Source: Cirrosporium novae-zelandiae (Eukaryota). Taken from it: a stretch of 64,000 nt of DNA. Within the stretch, counting starts at the first letter, position 1, and every line of letters starts with the position of its first letter. The position numbers and the translations under genes are program-made. The notes beneath the pieces are model-generated. The model worked only from the letters and a program-made list of their open reading frames with translations. It was not told the DNA's origin and did no database searches. The stretch is from positions 62,001 to 126,000 of the forward strand of contig JAPETS010000041.1 in assembly GCA_026023565.1 (NCBI GenBank), given 5' to 3'. Shown here in pieces: positions 5,150 through 13,537 of the stretch.

Positions 5150-7081
5150 ACTCGCATTGTGGTCATGGCGAGGCCATCAGCAAATGTGCAAAAGTACCAA
5201 CTATCGTTAAAGTTTTTGGTAAGAATAGAAACGCAAGACAATGAAAGGCGTAAATTTGTATCAATACTGAAGTTAGTGAAGTTGCTATATGGCTTAGATA
5301 TTATATTTATATAGATTGATGTGCTTAGGGCCGTCGTACAGGCCCAAATAAGTGTGCAGCAGACGGAGGCGATCATGGTGCTTGGTGGGCCCAAGCTTGA
5401 GTTCAAGGGCAGCAACCAAGAAGTTCTCGAAGGCCCTTGGCCTGCAGAATGGGAGCCACAAGACCAGGGTAAATTACCTAGGGAAGTAAGAATCATCAGT
5501 CCCCAAGATCAGTTACATTAATTACATTCATGACCACAGTAAATTAAATTACTTTACAAAGTAGTCACTGTCACTTAAAATTCAAAAAAAAGAGTAATGG
5601 ACAACAAGAAGCAAAGTGAGATGGTTCATAGATAGATGATATGGATGATGACGGATGAACCAATGATTAATGGACCAAAGGTCTTGGGCGCATCACCCCA
5701 TGTTACTATGTACCCTTTCGGGGACATCCACGGCATGTGTTGAGGAGATGGGAGATGATGAGTAGGACAAGGATCAGATGGGACGGAAGATTATTATGAT
5801 TATTATTGTGGACGATGTGTGAAGTGGCAGTTTGTAACCAACTAAAATACAAATGCTTTTCACCCGGTTTCTCCCTTGGCTTTGTTTGACGATTCAGGCA
5901 AATGAAATAAGAAATGAGCCTTGCCAAGCTTTTGCTTCCAGATTTCTGTTTGTTGGTCTTCAGTTGCCCTCAAGAGTCAAGCAAGCCCTCAACTAAAGTC
6001 TCTCTCCCTCTCTCGGGCCTTCCAGGGCTTGGTACCAAGTAAACGCCCACAAAAGGAATTCCAATCAAATCAATTGATCCATTAATTTGTAAAATTCACA
6101 CACAACTTCGGGCACCTGGGTAACATAACTATAGAAATAATTGAACTTGACATTTCAAATGAATTTTGATAAAAAGAAACAAAAAAGAAACAAAAAAAGA
6201 CTTTTGCGTAATTTGCAACAAGGAACAGCCTTCTCTCTGAATGGAGTCTAGGGCAAAGGCAGATACAGATAAATAGATAATACGTATTATTATATGGGGG
6301 ATTGAAAGTTTTGACAAGACCAGACCCAAGGAACAAGGTATTGTACTTACTTGTATGTAGTGAGTGCATCATCATCATCACCATCAAGTTTTCCCAGATT
6401 TCTGCTGGACAATGTAACTAACTGTAATACAAAGAATGGACTCTAGTTGTGATATAATAATAGTAATTATTAACCAGTGCCTAGACTATCGATTACTTCT
6501 TTTTGCTGCTTTTGGCGCAGTGGAAGCATCAGTGGAAGAGCAGAGCAGAACTGAATAGTTAAAACAGCAAAAAACGCACTTGTTCGCTAAACCGCCTCCC
6601 CTTTAACATCCCAGACCAAAGATTCCTCACCCAACTTTTTTCATCCACCAACCTTCATCCACCACCACATTTTCCGGCGGATCCTCTTCACATTCTCGAG
6701 GAGGAAATTTGCGGATTCAAAACAACAATCTTGTTTGGATTCTGCTAGCTGAAGACCTTTTGCTGAGATCTCGCTCTTCTTCTTTCAAGAGTGATCCTTG
6801 GCCACACAAATTAACTTTGAGTATCAGGTCTGCCAAATTTATCGCAGAAATATCCTGATCTTCATCTTCACCAATTCTCAGCGATTCTTTTTCGCTATTA
6901 CCTCTTAATTACTACTTTTGCTCACCTCACCAGCTTATCTTCACCTCACATTCTACTTCCTTCTCCTATCATCATAATTATCTGGACGTCAATACTTGGA
7001 AATTTTCCAATACATCCAGATCTTATCTTCCGACACAAATTTCGAAACCAAACTTGATCGAGCAAAAACAACAACTCCCGA

Positions 7082-10000
7082 ATGTCCACTCTCGCTCAGC
7101 AACCAGTCCCACAAACCTCATCTACAACGACTTCATCGCAAACGGCTAGCCAGGCGCATTCGCCATCGCCCTCTACAAGCGGCACAACGTCGCAGGCAGC
7201 AGCCGTCCCTGCCCCCACTGCTCGTTCGTACGCCAACGCTACTAAGAGATCTTCTGTCGCGTTAAGTACACCCAATTCGACAGTGGGAGGCTCCGTGCCG
7301 CAACCGCAGCATGGAAAGTCGCCTTCGATCTCTCCAGTAAATGGTAGGAACCCCATCTCACCAGCCGTGCCGGCTGTGAACGCTCCGACAATCGTAAACG
7401 GGAACTCGGTTGCAAATCACAGTTCTGCAGCGCAAGAGCATCACAATACTCATAGCCGAAAACCTTCCGTCACCATCAGCGCTGCTGGATCTAGTGGCTA
7501 TATCCCAAATGGAGGCCCGGTTGACGGGTCAAAACCAAATAACATACAGTTTGGATCAATCAAACCAGGCGGTTCTCCAGCCCCATTACATAGTACTCTC
7601 CAACCCACCCCAAACCCATCAGGCCTTGCCGCAAACCCTCAGATAAATCCTCGAGTCACATCACCACAAACCTCACCTTCACCTATCCCTCAACCTGTTG
7701 CAAGTGGCGGTAGACACCCACCTCCGTCAAGCAACTTTCAAGGCCAAGGCAATATGCCAAGCTTTGGTAGCATGGGCGGCGAGTCTGGAGAGGCAAATGT
7801 AAGTCGGGTTCAATTATTAGCTTCCAATTTCTCAGTTCTAACCAACCCACAGCGCCGTGCATCTGGGCTAGTCCCAGGACCTCAACACATGCGCCGCGAG
7901 TCCTCACAATCTGCACATAGTGATATTCCGAATCCTAATATGGGTCCTGCTGCTAGTCGCGGAGGATACCCCCAAAATGCAGGTCGAGGACGAAATTTCC
8001 CTCCACCTTATCAGCAACATGTGCCATATTCCCCCAGTCTCGGGTATCGCAACATGCAACAGCAGGGTCGTCCCAATTCACAATACGGAGTACAAGGAGG
8101 TCGGCCATTAGCACCATTTCCCAATTCTCCACATCAGTCGGCACGAAGCCCAGTGCCTACGAATGTGACCCCAGTTACGACCCCACAAATGGCACAAGCC
8201 CAATTACCAATGCACCAACCCCACTATGGAGGTTATCAACAACATGCAAGTTATCCCTCTTCTCTTCGAACCCAAAATCGTGGAAATTACAATAAGAATC
8301 GTCGTCCGTCAAAGAATTTCAACAGACCCAATGGCGGGCGCTTTGATAGGCCTAGCGACAAACACTTCAACAGAGACTATGATACTCAGTCTTCTGAGCG
8401 AGGGCACCCTCGTCGCTATCAAAGATCCCCGTCATTTGAGCAGCCCTCATTCCATGAATCGTTTCCTGTCATACCCCTTCAATCCCCTCCCCCCTTTCCA
8501 CCCTCTCTACCCGTTTCGATTCAAAACACCAATTTCTCGCCTGAAAGTGGCAATTTTGAACAAGTAATTCTAACACTTCATTCCGCTTCCCAGAATCCGT
8601 ATGCCATGGCAACACCCTATCCTCAGTTTGTGGACCCCGCCTACTATGGTGGCTTCCCACCCCAGGCCAGCCTGCATCAAATGCCATACGGTATGCCGCC
8701 GTCGTCCCCTCGGCCGCCCTACGCACAGCAACCTGCTCATTACGTGCCGGGTCAATATGGAGCACCCCCTCAGGCTCAACCAATGTCGCGAACATCTTCT
8801 CAAGTTTCTACAACCGATCGACCAGCCTCGAGTATGGGACAAATCCAAGCCCCTCCAATGACGGCTACCCCATCTCAGGGACATGCTCAGCCAGCAAGTA
8901 GCCGATCAAGTAATAGCCCCGCCCCTAAGCCTAATACTAATTTCAAGATACCCCGCAAGAGCGCAGCGATCTCGATTAAGGATCCTACTACAGGTGTGCC
9001 GATTAGCCTGGACAAATCACCGGCTTCACCCGCTTTGCAGGCTCGTGGCACTCCATCTCCAGTCAAGAGTGTACCAACGCCTCCCCCAAGATCAGTAAGC
9101 AGTGCCGATCAACAGCGTAGCCGCTCCGAATCACAGAGCATCAAAACTGATGCTGAAAAGAAGCTTGATTTCAAAGATGAAGTCGCCAAGAAAATCGAAG
9201 CGGATCGAGCTGAGGAGCAGCGACGAAAGGAAGAGGCTCAAAGGGCCGAGAAGGCTGCAAAGGATAAGGCGGAAGCTGAAGCTAGGGAGCGTGAAGCTGC
9301 TGCCATAAGAGAAAAAGACGAAAAGGAGGCCAAAGAGAAGCGACTTCAGGCAGAAGCTGAAGCTAAGAAAGCCGAGGAAGCTGCTGCTGCTGAGAAGAAA
9401 AGGCAAGAAGAAGAAGAAGAAGCCAAGAGGAAGGCCAAGGAAGCCGAAAAGAAAAATGAGCCCGAAGAGATCGATTATGATGCTATCGAGGCCGAATACC
9501 AACGCATGGAAGAGGAAGAAAGGGCAGCCGAAGAAGCATATCAAAAGAAGAAACAAGCTGAAAAAGAAGTGAATGCGGCCAAAGCAAAAGAAGCTGCCGC
9601 CAATGAGGAGGCCGAACTCAAGAGGGCAGAGCGTGAGGCAGAAGAGGCTGAGGAAAAGCGTCTCAAAGAACTTGACAGCAAAAAGGAAAAGGATGATGAA
9701 AATGCTAAACTCTTTGCTTCCCTTAAAAGTCACGGTGGTCTCTCGACTCCAAGTGACGCACTGGCTTCGAAATCACCTGCTGGGAGCGGAACTGCTACCC
9801 CGACATCTGACATCTCAATGCCACCACCTGCCAAGCACGTTGGAAAGCGTGAAAAACCAGCAGCTCTCAAGTTGGAGACAACTAAAACCATTGAACCAGC
9901 TCAGCCGAGTGCTGCCTTGCAGTCTCTTCGATCTGCAAAGAGGATCCTGCGACTAGACGAAATTGCTTACCCTCCTTCAGTTTCATCCCCTAACCCGGCT

Positions 10001-12132
10001 CTAAACTCTCATGCCCCTACAGGCCGATTTAAGTACGACAAGGAATTCTTAATGCAATTCCAGCGAGTTTTCACGGAGAAACCCAGCACTGATTGGGATA
10101 TGAAGGTCGCCGATACTGTAGCTGCTGATGTACCCAAGTCAGCACGCACTCCCAGTATAGCCGGCTTAGGTCCCCGTGGTAGTAGTCGCCACAGTCTTGC
10201 AAATACCTTTAATATGGGACAATTTGGTCAGACTGGCTCAAGGACATTGCCTCCTGGCACTACCTCGGAACAGCGCTTCAATGCTACTATGGGCCCAGGT
10301 GGTGGGCGCCCACCGCTGAACAATCCATTAGGTTCATTTGGACGAGGAAGCTTTCCGATGGCACTTGGATCAATGGGCCGTACTCCATCTTCGGTTTCTC
10401 TCCACAATCAAGTGCCTTCTTCTCCCCGTGTTGGAAGCCATCGTGGCCGGCAAGATAGCAAGCGTACTCATGGCAAGCAAGATAAGAAGAAGGAACACGA
10501 GGAGAATAAGAGTATGCCTCTGACAGCAGGCATGAACCTCACACCTTTACAAGTATCTCAAACTGGTTGGAAACCAAGAAGTATTGGTGCTAGCGCCAAT
10601 CAACCAGGACCAGCGATTGGAGAAATGATGCCTCCCGATATTGTTCAAAGAAAGGTGAAGGCCGCGTTGAACAAGATGACTCCCGAGAAGTTTGATCGTA
10701 TTGCCGATCAGATTCTCACTATTGTGGCTCAAAGCAAGAACGAGAGTGACGGCAGAACACTACGGCAGGTCATTAGTCTTACTTTCGACAAAGCCACTGA
10801 TGAGGCACACTGGGCATCCATGTATGCTATGTTCTGCAAGCGCATGCTTGAAACGATGTCGCCCGAAATAAAAGGTAAATTTCAAATTCATTCCTTCTCA
10901 CTACATGCTAATGTGGAGTTTCTAGATGCCACTATAACCGACCGTCAAGGACAGCCAGTTACAGGAGGCAATCTCTTCCGCAAATATCTCCTCAACAGAT
11001 GCCAGGAAGAATTCGAAAAAGGATGGACCGTCAATCTTCCCAAGAATCCTGAAGGTGCGGAGTCCCATGAAGCTGTTATGTTATCTGATGAATATTACAT
11101 CGCTGCTGCTGCGAAACGACGGGGTTTGGGTCTTGTTAAGTTCATTGGTGAGCTGTTTAAACTTCAGATGCTTACTGAACGAATTATGCATGAATGTGTC
11201 AAAAAACTACTAGAGTTTGAAGGTATGCCAGATGAAGCAGAAGTGGAGAGCTTGACAAGTTTGTTGCGAACGGTTGGTAAAAACTTAGATGAAAGCGAAA
11301 GAGGGCATCCTATGATGGATGCCTACTTCCAGCGTATTGGCGGGCTCATGCAACTCGATGGCTTGAATAGTCGTCTTAGGTTCATGCTTCTAGATGTTAT
11401 TGACCTTCGATCCAAGCATTGGGCCGATAAGAGGTGAGCCAGTCTGCGTGTTATTTTCTGGCAATCAGAGAACTAGGACTAACTTACTTATAGCGCTAAT
11501 AAGGGACCCAAAACTATCCAAGAGATTCGAGAAGAGGCCCAATTGCAAGCTCAAAAGCAAGAACTTGAACGCATGCGCCAGCAAAGCCGAGGCGGTGGTA
11601 GATCTAATATGGGCCGCGGTGACTCCCGACACTTTTCCTCTGGAATGGGACCACCTCAGGACTACAAGCAAAATACTGTTGGTATTGATGATCTTCGCCG
11701 TCTCGGTAGCCGGACCAATTCGAGACAAGTCAGTCATCACGGCACTGGACCTAGTTTCGGACCATCCAGCCTCTTCAACCAACGGAGTAACAGTGGTCGA
11801 CGGACGTTGGGTCCTCAGCTCATGAGGGGCGGAGACGACAGCAGCCATAGCAGCCGAACAGGAACACCCGTTTCCCAGAAGGAGAGGAAAGAAAAGGAGG
11901 AGAAAGAGGCTGCCCATGCCAATTCTTTCAGGTAGATTTTCCCGATCAATTACCATTAAAAGAATCTACTGCTTACACTTTCTTGCTTAGTGCACTAGCC
12001 AGTTTGGATCCTCACGGTGACCACCACGATGCCGGATCCCCCCCTTCGACTAGCGCCTCTCCAATACTCCCCAAGGTTCGACCAACCCATGAGCGTACCC
12101 GATCAAAATCTCCAACGAAGAAAGACGCTTAG
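7082..12132 (+). CDS. TIF4631: Translation initiation factor eIF4G; predicted introns 7799-7852, 8246-8593 (GC-AG), 10875-10925, 11434-11493, 11932-11990
   Basis: eIF4E-binding YxxxxL-phi motif (KYDKEFLMQF); MIF4G domain (VKAALNKMTPEKF...FDKATDE...LLNRCQEEF...FIGELFK...SRLRFML); spliced tail KSANKGPKTI. Confidence 0.96.
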
Positions 12133-13537
12133 GTTGAATTCCAGCCAAACTTTCCTCACTTTTCCTTCCAGTCTACCTCTTCCTATGAAAGGAGGATTAG
12201 ACATATGTCATGCTCTCCAAAAAATGTCTTTTTGCATCAAAAAACTTCGGATTATAGACAAGCACGCGGGCACAAAATTCCCCAGGGCGGCTTCTGGGGA
12301 TGGGAGAGACATGGGTCCATGGCTAAATAATTCTGGTACGGGGTTATGGGTAATATTATATGGGTATTGGGGGGGGGAGGGGGGGGGGATATTGGCAAAC
12401 GGCAATGACAGCAAGGCAGTAAGGACTGGACGTCATGAACGGCATGAAATGATCCTTTTTATGAATAGTGACATGCTGCTTATATATATTGCTTCAAAAA
12501 GCAATGACTGTCTGGCTTAACTTAAGTAGGCTCTGTCATCATGTTTGTTTGCTTATTTCCGTCCGCCGGGCAACGCGGGTCTATCCGTCACGGATGGATG
12601 ATCTTGGTTCTTTGTCTGGCTTACAACGGGAATATTGATGAATTGATTTGAGAAACAATGGTAGGGGTGATGGGTGCTGGAGGACAGAGTGGCATTCACC
12701 AACAACCGATGAACACGCATTACTTCTGGGCTTTTGTTGTTGTTGTTGTGTGTTGCCCTACGCGTGTGAGTGTGTTGTGTTATGTGTTTTTTCTCTTCAT
12801 TTCGAGATTCCTTCATGTCCATACTTTTTTTCCGTACTGGTTTTGTTGTTAGATTTCCCCCACTTTTTGTCGCCGGCGCTGAGCAAGCAAGCAAGCGAAG
12901 AAAAGCTTTGGCATATACTGTTCCTTTTATGAGGTTGAAGGCTCAAAGCATCACAAGCTGCAATGCAGTAGACTGGCTTAATCTGGGGAGAAGCAATTAA
13001 TACCTACATTACTGAAATTCACATTCAAAAACTTTCAACGTAATGTAATCGACCCACGAATGCCCTGCTAAACACCCTACTAAGCAGTTTCATATTAAAG
13101 TAATGAGTAAAATATTAATTGTTAAGAGGGGTAACGCGAGCAAGGTTGGTTAGATTACTTTGCTTTTCTCGTCCTTTTCCTCTGAATCATCCTATCTTAG
13201 TATCTGATTCACGAGTTCCAGGTCAAAGACCCCAAGAGAGGGGAGAGAAAGAACGAAAATAATTAGGCTACGAGGAAGTATATATTGGCTTATTTTGTAG
13301 TCTTATCGTGGATTTCAAGGAGTACTGGCATATCCACCTACTGATCCTTGAATTCCTATAAAGACTCGAACTCGCCTTTGCTTTAGCGAGTTCATAAACA
13401 TATCATCATATACCATTAATCATAGCCCCTCATTAGAGAAGAGAGTAATCATACAGCCAGCCGGCTCCACCTGTCAACAACTCTTGGAATACCTTCGAAA
13501 CAGCATGGTAATTCCACTTCCTTCCCATACCCAAGCA

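Follow-up and report, generated by a model that had tools for sequence, protein, structure and literature searches.

A candidate exitron-like coding intron in the N-terminal region of eIF4G in Cirrosporium novae-zelandiae and related Pezizomycotina

The plus strand of the 64-kb stretch of Cirrosporium novae-zelandiae DNA that was analysed (the window) carries the gene for eIF4G, the scaffold of cap-dependent translation, which runs from the ATG at 7082 to the TAG at 12130-12132 (7082..12132). The product clears the curated Pfam cut-offs for MIF4G (E 3.8e-43) and also for eIF_4G1 (E 5.9e-21), and is 100% identical to NCBI protein P0001 ("M1834_006660 [Cirrosporium novae-zelandiae]", 1608 aa). 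Four short introns interrupt the coding sequence. These are intron 1 (7799..7852, 54 nt, GTAAGT..CTAAC..CAG), which served as the control intron; intron 3 (10875..10925, 51 nt, GTAAAT..TAG, phase 1), over whose junction P0001 has the sequence SPEIKDATITD; intron 4 (11434..11493, 60 nt, GTGAGC..TAG); and intron 5 (11932..11990, 59 nt, GTAGAT..TAG). With these four removed and positions 8246-8593 counted as exon, the exons (7082-7798, 7853-10874, 10926-11433, 11494-11931 and 11991-12132) sum to 4824 nt or 1608 codons, which is the length of P0001; the NCBI model treats 8246-8593 as coding.

Segment 8246..8593 on the plus strand is the candidate exitron ("intron 2"), a homologue of a conserved coding intron, and consists of 348 nt or 116 stop-free codons. 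The upstream coding part of its exon (7853..8245) ends in ..GGYQQH. The downstream part (8594..10874) starts with NPYAM, which aligns with the NQYGM that opens the homologous exon in relatives. It contains the conserved K-S-A-A-I-S-I-K-D-P box, the eIF4E-binding motif Y-D-K-E-F-L-M-Q-F and the beginning of MIF4G. The 5' splice site is GCAAGT (8246..8251; context CAT|GCAAGT), that is, a GC donor which agrees with the consensus at +3 to +6. It lies 1164 nt beyond the ATG at 7082 and is therefore in phase 0 of the open reading frame starting there. A CTAAC branch site can be read at 8570..8574, followed at 8575..8593 by a pyrimidine-rich tract and the CAG acceptor (8591-8593), the 3' splice site being 20 nt past the branch A. 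The letters between CTAAC and CAG are CTTCATTCCGCTTCC. The segment thus possesses the signals of a spliceosomal intron in their usual fungal form and spacing, with a donor of the minor GC class. Frame 0 contains no stops, while frames 1 and 2 contain two and ten, respectively. A sequence-only reading had described a phase-0, stop-free GC-AG segment in eIF4G, and its donor, CTAAC, CAG and frame were all confirmed; its estimate that the segment is about six times as long as the gene's other introns also agrees with the lengths (348 nt versus 54, 51, 60 and 59 nt). Within the 4.35-kb open reading frame CTAAC occurs only three times and G[TC]AAGT only four times. One of the three CTAAC closes intron 1, and another closes segment 8246-8593.

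Metagenomes supplied 39 further distinct eIF4G loci with an intron at the identical site. Counting the window, 39 of these 40 distinct sequences have a segment whose length is a multiple of three (3n) and which can be read through in the host frame without a stop; in the single exception (L079) the frame has decayed and the gene has been kept. Boundaries were mapped in 36 distinct sequences, namely the window and 35 metagenome loci, the donor and intron 1 boundaries being called by our own heuristics. All 36 segments are 3n; 30 lengths are represented, the shortest being 147 and the longest 477 nt. Their 3709 frame-0 codons include not one stop, compared with 95 in frame 1 and 190 in frame 2; owing to the phylogenetic relatedness of the sequences, these counts do not represent independent trials. 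Three further loci beyond the 36 (L036, L026 and L027) are open too. In these genes the control, intron 1, is 3n in 2/15 cases and stop-free in 5/15. Among fungal GT-AG introns generally, 9.2% are both 3n and stop-free according to Table 2 of PMC7072748.

Each of the 36 mapped segments starts with an in-frame GT (GC in the window) and has a branch site of the CTRAY type followed, after 11-20 nt, by an in-frame CAG. The branch sites are CTAAC (23), CTGAC (10), CTAAT (2) and CTTAC (1), and in the homologues the 3' splice site likewise follows the branch A at 11-20 nt. One might suppose that the segment is plain coding sequence in which intron-like words have arisen by chance, the region being compositionally biased and poor in stops (only two even in frame 1). 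We regard this as extremely improbable, because splice signals occur at the homologous place in the 39 other loci and because exactly this segment is removed in mRNA-like contigs and gene models of relatives.

The removal is seen most directly in metagenome contigs judged to be mRNA-like from a full open reading frame, the lack of introns and a length of 4.7-5.6 kb. All nine intron-less contigs of this kind are without the segment, seven of them full-length (L009, L015, L017, L020, L021, L031 and L059) and two partial (L007 and L008). Contig L015 can be compared with the genomic contig L010, to which it is 92-95% identical in four collinear blocks; the gaps, found in L010 only, measure 61, 458 and 47 nt, from which it follows that three introns have been removed, the homologue of the segment among them. 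The junction is exact: L015 reads CAACCA|GGCTAC, where L010 reads CAACCA|GTAAAT...AAACAG|GGCTAC. The 5' end of another contig, L005, matches neither isoform.

No segment-retaining transcript was seen in any relative, all nine mRNA-like contigs being spliced, and the long isoform may therefore be scarce, made only under certain conditions, or absent. Contig L040 keeps the segment and was considered as a retained transcript; its open reading frame begins only at exon 2 and its intron 1 could be mapped, and it was therefore taken as genomic. Annotation is divided. Of the 120 orthologues listed, 100 retain the segment and 11 remove it, the retaining models being predictions by gene finders, which keep any open frame; models without the segment make up 11/120 and 9/120 of the orthologues listed. 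In Neurospora crassa both versions exist, model NCU07868 (1399 aa) being without the segment and a second model (1551 aa) keeping it.

The segment could be an ordinary, efficiently spliced intron with a functionless insert, its open frame serving only to let the occasional mis-spliced (retained) mRNA yield a harmless full-length eIF4G rather than a truncated protein. The uniform splicing of the mRNA-like contigs agrees with this, as does the fact that the L079 lineage lost the frame and not the gene. The interior of the segment is also poorly conserved, with dN/dS values of 0.22-0.65 in 11 of 12 computable close pairs and 1.26 in one short pair; the flanking exons change far more slowly (0.01-0.19). 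Some pairs have little third-position excess in the interior (for instance L033/L069, 0.18/0.11/0.17). Tolerance of splicing errors, however, leaves unexplained the failure of the adjacent intron 1, in this same essential gene, to stay open, and it does not explain the consistently charged, mostly basic composition of the insert or a 14-residue motif which is conserved at the amino-acid level with free third positions. We therefore consider this explanation unlikely.

This motif, D/N-L/F-S-P-E-S-G-N-F-E-x-F/Y-L-T in general form, sits just before and over the branch point. In the window it reads N-F-S-P-E-S-G-N-F-E-Q-V-I-L-T (8531..8575, plus strand) and ends in the codons CTA ACA, which are the branch site. 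It was found in 100 of the 120 orthologue proteins listed. In 35 distinct DNA sequences the mean entropy of ten motif codons is approximately 0.57 bits at the first codon position, 0.49 at the second and 1.44 at the third, and third positions reach 1.80-1.96 bits in the codons for L, S, P and E/D. Variation is thus almost confined to third codon positions, a pattern which argues for selection at the protein level inside the intron. Outside the motif the constraint may mainly be to stay open. As a whole, the segment appears to evolve like coding sequence, with weak constraint in the interior.

The sequence-only reading had called the insert basic, and this holds: in the window it has 13% K+R and a net charge of +6 between Q/P/Y-rich flanks, and the inserts as a group, mostly basic, have 12.3% K+R against 4.4% in the flanks, with a positive net charge in 30/36. 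The insert looks disordered. A non-coding RNA housed in the intron, either a snoRNA or a structured regulatory RNA, might account for a length some six times that of the other introns, or for the conservation, since synonymous divergence in close pairs is lower in the segment interior than in the flanking exons. Such an RNA is highly improbable, as only the motif is conserved, with a periodicity of three bases, Rfam has no match in 7000-12500 at E up to 1, and the fold is ordinary, its energy being no better than that of shuffled sequences (z = -0.08).

The sequence-only reading had proposed aligning orthologous loci to look for a conserved 3n length, open frame, SPESGNFE motif and GC donor. 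The first three are conserved, as is the site; the GC donor is not, for GC occurs in the window alone among the 36 mapped sequences, the others having GT, mostly without G at +5. A G at this position is present in 5/36 segment donors versus 15/15 intron 1 donors. Among the splice-site pairs annotated in fungi, 1.009% are GC-AG (PMC7072748, Table 1). It might be argued that, in Cirrosporium only, a change from GT to GC killed the donor and turned a former intron into a constitutive coding segment. That the window has the sole GC donor of the 36 is in keeping with such a change; the NCBI model keeps the segment, and with frame and motif intact constitutive translation would be possible. Functional GC-AG introns have strong flanking donor positions. 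The rest of the GC donor in the window is a perfect AAGT, which fits a donor that still works, and CTAAC, pyrimidine tract and CAG are all intact at a normal distance. A chance GCAAGT in phase 0 at the exact site is unlikely as well, given 18 copies on the plus strand of the 64-kb window. On balance, loss of splicing in this species seems improbable to us.

We therefore favour, as the likely explanation, an old, exitron-like coding intron within the disordered N-terminal part of eIF4G, a status suggested by its having been kept both spliceable and translatable. In the spliced form (approximately 1492 aa) the spliceosome would take out the segment and join ..GGYQQH to NPYAM..; this is the form found in the mRNA-like contigs of relatives. 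In the retained form (1608 aa) the ribosome would read through and add a charged, mostly basic, fast-evolving insert, of some 50-160 residues across relatives, ending in the motif, the final two codons of which also serve as the branch site. Both the K-S-A-A-I-x-I-K-D-P box and the motif for eIF4E binding would lie downstream of the insert. From the selection on frame and codons we infer that a retained mRNA exists and is translated.

The unusual 5' splice site probably renders removal incomplete or open to regulation, and its weakness would then set the ratio of the isoforms, through GC with a perfect AAGT in the window and through GT mostly without the +5 G elsewhere. The sequence-only reading had attributed two isoforms to a weak GC donor; the comparative data strongly support an intron that is spliceable yet open, whereas the GC is not conserved and the long form is a predicted one. 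Its suggestion that the insert might bind RNA or modulate condensates is conjectural. The coding-intron status of the segment is, in the best reading of the sequences, ancient, and the intron would be common to the crown classes of the Pezizomycotina, a breadth judged from proteins of at least 1604 aa, a set biased toward segment-retaining models. The arrangement persists in most filamentous ascomycetes, with genera such as Aspergillus, Neurospora, Botrytis, Colletotrichum and Sporothrix among them.

Several known systems resemble this arrangement. The exitrons of plants and humans, as Marquez et al. are said to have described them in 2015, lie in the interior of coding exons, have splice signals, are 3n without stops and show coding features. 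They reportedly often encode disordered regions and have weaker splice sites than constitutive introns; they are defined by transcript data with both forms, and most described examples are spliced in a minority of transcripts. The eIF4G segment shares with them its position inside a coding exon, splice signals, 3n length, lack of stops, coding features and a disordered setting, all known here from the DNA. Unlike most exitrons, it appears to be spliced as the main outcome in relatives, which brings it closer to a "coding retained intron".

An example of a retained intron is that of PTC7 in Saccharomyces and its relatives (Juneau et al. 2009, in the account of PMC7491326), where spliced and unspliced mRNAs both code for protein, both proteins have been shown and the retained part is a functional element. 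As in eIF4G, the PTC7 intron is 3n and without in-frame stops across species, and one lineage has resolved the dual state differently, the eIF4G counterpart being L079. The short PTC7 intron contributes a transmembrane helix and, according to PMC7491326, dates within the Saccharomycotina. The eIF4G intron, in contrast, measures 147-477 nt, encodes a charged, disordered insert whose linear motif overlaps the branch site, and is spread over several classes of Pezizomycotina. Both forms of PTC7 have been demonstrated as RNA and as protein (PMC7491326), whereas we infer the retained form of eIF4G.

In the fungal SKI7/HBS1 gene, alternative 3' splice sites yield two functionally distinct proteins (PMC3597508 and PMC7491326). 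This is an ancient, widespread splicing event of fungi by which one translation-related gene gives two proteins, as eIF4G would; in eIF4G, unlike SKI7/HBS1, the choice is plain retention or removal of one in-frame intron. Fungal GC-AG introns, 13.3% of which are 3n without in-frame stops in the figures drawn from PMC7072748, share the GC donor and AG acceptor with the window. They differ in that here GC is found only in this species and the homologous donors are GT. In searches of the openly available literature, no published description of the eIF4G intron was found.

As to the role of the motif, its L-S-P-x-S/A-G-x-F core resembles PAM2, a PABP-binding (MLLE-binding) element with L..[S/A]..F spacing. 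Pfam PAM2, however, matched none of 11 inserts even when E values as high as 10 were admitted, in searches with HMMER filters that drop most weak matches; only two sub-threshold Pfam matches were obtained in inserts, to the unrelated Sororin_middle (E 0.028) and DUF5323 (E 0.021). A more far-reaching and quite tentative possibility is that crown Pezizomycotina have a two-isoform eIF4G switch which predates the divergence of the main classes. Regulated retention would add a basic disordered module, and the S-P-E-S-G-x-F-E-x-F-L motif could be a docking or phospho-regulated site for some partner, changing the mRNAs or granules that eIF4G engages, for example under stress or in development. Given the overlap of motif and branch site, protein and splicing signals would under such a switch be forced to co-evolve.

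If true, a second eIF4G isoform across several classes of filamentous ascomycetes would constitute an unstudied layer of translational control, and the segment would be a clean case of one stretch of DNA under the double constraint of splicing signal and peptide. With some models retaining the segment and others splicing it, public annotations of the same gene differ by 50-150 residues.

The open reading frame beginning at ATG 7082 encodes eIF4G (Pfam eIF_4G1, E 5.9e-21; MIF4G, E 3.8e-43), and its translation is 100% identical to the 1608-aa NCBI protein P0001, [quoted passage not shown], from a fungus of the Xylobotryomycetes (Pezizomycotina). Four short introns lie on the + strand: intron 1 at 7799-7852 (54 nt, GTAAGT..CTAAC..CAG) and others at 10875-10925 (51 nt), 11434-11493 (60 nt), and 11932-11990 (59 nt). 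Without these four, but with 8246-8593 retained, the exons total 4824 nt, or 1608 codons, so the NCBI model has the latter segment as coding. The sequence-only reading had described this segment, here called intron 2, as an open GC-AG intron, a description borne out base for base: a phase-0 donor CAT/GCAAGT at 8246, CTAAC at 8570-8574, a pyrimidine-rich tract, and CAG at 8591-8593. Its 348 nt, or 116 codons, contain no stop in frame versus 2 and 10 in the other frames, and its G+C content is 0.47 (exon flanks, 0.53-0.56; small introns, 0.33-0.42).

A protein search with the exon-2 translation gave 341 matches; the best 120 were classified and 18 of these aligned. Nearly all of the 18 carry a variable insert at the segment site, among them proteins of Aspergillus, Talaromyces, Exophiala, Cladophialophora, Xylographa, Xylona, Sarea, Candelina, and others. 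The first insert residue is Val, and near the end stands the conserved motif D/N-L-S/A-P-E-S-G-x-F-E-x-Y/F-L-T, followed by a few residues and then Q; the Cirrosporium motif is intact (N-F-S-P-E-S-G-N-F-E-Q-V-I-L-T, 8531-8575, + strand). Among the best 120 of 341 matches, 100 contain the motif, 11 lack the whole insert with normal flank spacing, 3 have a long insert outside the regular expression, and 6 do not cover the site. The cut in the 11 insert-less models runs exactly from Val to Q; examples of insert-less versus insert-bearing entries are Aspergillus ibericus (P0008) versus A. sclerotiicarbonarius (P0007), A. bertholletiae (P0017) versus A. pseudonomiae (P0020), and Paecilomyces variotii (P0068) versus P. 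lecythidis (P0025).

A second search, with a Sordariales-like locus as query, was classified for the best 120 of 559 matches: 82 with the motif, 9 with clean removal, 8 with a long insert outside the regular expression, and 21 in which the anchors failed. One of these 21, NCU07868 of Neurospora crassa OR74A (P0162, 1399 aa), reads ..MYQQQ/VPGYPAPMDY.., the segment having been removed; a second model of the same gene (P0136, 1551 aa) retains it as ..MYQQQ/VKPPSFS...IDLSPESGQFENVLTKQKQ/VPGYPAPMDY.., and the 152-residue difference is exactly intron 2. Annotators are thus already split on the intron status of the segment. All orthologue entries are gene models, and their RNA backing may differ. 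An odd junction occurs in P0152 (Apiosordaria backusii), which retains just ..LLTANKMQ of the insert, and P0137 and P0150 (Cercophora, Podospora) retain an insert with a degenerate motif; either gene-finder error or lineage variation could account for these models.

Metagenome contigs scanned with alignment A1 yielded 538 matching stretches, of which 424 were confirmed and 80 kept as eIF4G loci. The segment site was located by conserved peptide anchors and the motif, and its boundaries were set by our own rules, giving 36 distinct mapped sequences, the window included. All 36 segments are a multiple of three in length, with 30 different values between 147 and 477 nt, which argues for many separate in-frame indels. 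The 3709 frame-0 codons contain no stop; frames 1 and 2 contain 95 and 190. The donors are GTAAAG (11), GTAAAT (8), GTACAT (5), GTAACT (3), GTAAAC and GTTCGT (2 each), and, once each, GTGAAC, GTACCT, GTGAGG, GTGAGA, and the window's GCAAGT. The Leu-Thr/Met codons of the motif double as the branch site (CTAAC 23, CTGAC 10, CTAAT 2, CTTAC 1), and an in-frame CAG follows 11-20 nt past the branch A. Three further loci outside the regular expression (L036, L026, and L027) are also open here, so that 39 of 40 distinct sequences carry an open segment, many of them related and hence not 40 independent trials. The exception, L079, whose nearest named proteins are from Pleosporales (71-72% identity), has a 157-nt intron (6675-6831) beginning with GTTCGT, not a multiple of three, with in-frame stops and, ahead of CTAAC, no more than a relic of the motif words; in this lineage the coding intron has become an ordinary one.

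Intron 1 served as a control. In the same genes it follows ..GDGD, some 400 nt upstream of intron 2, and a similar heuristic mapped it in 15 distinct sequences. Only 2 of these 15 copies have a length divisible by three (3n+1 in 7, 3n+2 in 6), versus all 36 mapped copies of intron 2; intron 1 is free of in-frame stops in 5 of 15 versus 36 of 36; and it has G at donor +5 in 15 of 15 versus 5 of 36. Judged by length, stops, and donor, therefore, only intron 1 behaves as an ordinary intron. As background, a survey of 130 fungal genomes (PMC7072748) puts GC-AG at 1.009% of splice-site pairs, and introns of 3n length without an in-frame stop at 9.2% of GT-AG and 13.3% of GC-AG introns, a fraction attributed there to short intron length. 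Two of the four short introns of Cirrosporium eIF4G (54 nt, 7799-7852; 51 nt, 10875-10925) are likewise multiples of three. Cirrosporium intron 1 also has no stop in the host frame, and the open reading frame 7058-11437 consequently spans three introns; with only 2 of 15 relatives' copies being 3n, its length and openness look like chance. Both introns are open in frame in L026/L027 (5150-6300), where the motif end reads D-L-S-P-A-N-N-N-F-E-I-Y-S-Q-I-A-K-Q and lacks the Leu-Thr codons that normally form the branch site.

Seven loci of 4.7-5.6 kb (L009, L015, L017, L020, L021, L031, and L059) consist of one unbroken reading frame of 1407-1580 codons from the start Met and lack both introns 1 and 2; intron 2 is missing from the partial contigs L007 and L008 as well. 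Compared with the genomic locus L010, L015 forms four collinear blocks of 92-95% identity, separated by stretches present only in L010, of 61 nt (intron 1), 458 nt (intron 2, mapped as 459), and 47 nt (a third, C-terminal intron). The intron-2 junction is exact: CAACCA/GTAAAT...AAACAG/GGCTAC in L010 and CAACCA/GGCTAC in L015. L020, without the segment, stands in the same relation to L026/L027 (86-90% identity). From their sequence we take the intron-less contigs to be assembled mRNAs, and we infer that splicing removes the homologous segment along with ordinary introns in all nine mRNA-like contigs and at least two lineages. No contig without intron 1 but with intron 2, as in a retained mRNA, was found among the metagenome loci. 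The first 86 bases of the 3.8-kb contig L005 (1-90) are in frame with the exon after intron 2 and show no match to the upstream exon or to the motif end of the intron; a chimera, an alternative 5′ exon, or a diverged intron might account for them.

The Cirrosporium donor has GC for GT, lies a few residues upstream of the relatives' Val in a MAFFT alignment, and has no in-frame GT at the position aligned to their donor; splicing of the segment may conceivably have been lost in this lineage. Every other element is present (open frame, motif, CTAAC, pyrimidine tract, CAG), the acceptor is homologous to that of the relatives since NPYAM.. aligns with NQYGM.., and the donor, GC notwithstanding, has AAGT at +3 to +6, including the G at +5 that is missing in 31 of the 35 others. 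We read GCAAGT as a probably functional minor-class donor.

Codon-position entropy was determined for ten motif codons (D-L-S-P-E-S-G-N-F-E) in 35 distinct DNA sequences. It is near zero at positions 1 and 2 of most codons (means ~0.57 and ~0.49 bits) and averages ~1.44 bits at position 3, reaching 1.80-1.96 at Leu, Ser, Pro, and the final Glu/Asp; every TCN and every CCN codon is found. Variation with a three-base period would not be expected of an RNA element, so the pattern is that of translated sequence. For the interior, 13 close pairs were compared after trimming 2 codons from the 5′ side and 22 from the 3′ side. Among the 12 computable pairs dN/dS is 0.22-0.65 in 11 and 1.26 in one 23-codon pair, versus 0.01-0.19 in flanking 120-codon exon stretches. 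Several close pairs show a small third-position excess, and interior dS falls below that of the flanks (e.g., 0.27 vs 0.6-1.1 in L019/L040 and L033/L069). These values point to weak protein constraint on the interior, on which other constraints may also act. Across these two pairs, L056/L062, and L024/L065, interior synonymous divergence is ~0.27-0.29 versus 0.46-1.2 in the flanks, which hints at extra nucleotide-level constraint (e.g., splicing control) or an alignment effect. The inserts contain 12.3% K+R and 8.2% D+E versus 4.4% and 1.3% in the flanks, with positive net charge in 30 of 36. Chaetothyriales-type inserts (P0018, P0079, P0095, P0101, L003, L016) share, in addition to the terminal motif, RG-rich runs and a second conserved piece, S-R/K-D-P-A-S-D-H/Y-Y-R-P (also given as S-R-D-P-A-S-D-H-Y-R-P), so parts of the interior are conserved within this class.

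A dual-use, exitron-like role for the segment is, in our judgment, probable. Default splicing would give a short eIF4G; incomplete or regulated use of the unusual donor would yield a long one, in which a disordered, charged insert bearing a docking-type motif precedes both the K-S-A-A-I-x-I-K-D-P box and the eIF4E-binding site. The long, retained isoform is a prediction. The sequence-only reading was largely right in kind but wrong in making the mechanism depend on the GC donor, which only the window has (1 of 36). The S-P and S-G in the motif suggest, speculatively, phospho-regulation. A suspected resemblance between the motif and PAM2 was supported in 0 of 11 inserts by Pfam search, and no Pfam family scored above threshold in the inserts. 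An Rfam search with the segment gave no match, and its RNA folding is unremarkable (z = -0.08). Exitrons occur in plants and humans. PTC7 of Saccharomyces and relatives has a coding retained intron, described as 3n, without stops, and giving two proteins (PMC7491326); SKI7/HBS1 is described as an ancient fungal splicing event giving two proteins (PMC3597508). Coding retained introns are already known; a full-text literature search found no description of the eIF4G one. What sets it apart is how old and widespread it is, the gene that hosts it, and the overlap of a conserved peptide motif with the branch site.

Motif-bearing named proteins come from Sarea and Candelina and from genera that we take to represent Eurotiomycetes, Lecanoromycetes, and Xylonomycetes; Sordariomycetes (Sordariales, Xylariales, Glomerellales, Ophiostomatales, Hypocreales, Coniochaetales, and Diaporthales); Leotiomycetes (Botrytis, Ciborinia, Lachnellula, Hymenoscyphus, and others); and, in Dothideomycetes, Trypethelium. 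The insert is absent from the listed models, all of at least 1604 aa, of two Orbiliomycetes, Neolecta, and basidiomycetes, in which the segment may have been spliced out of the model. In Pleosporales models (Amniculicola, Boeremia) the insert is open yet degenerate, and in L079 the frame is lost. From this distribution, intron 2 seems to have arisen before the crown classes ("leotiomyceta") radiated.
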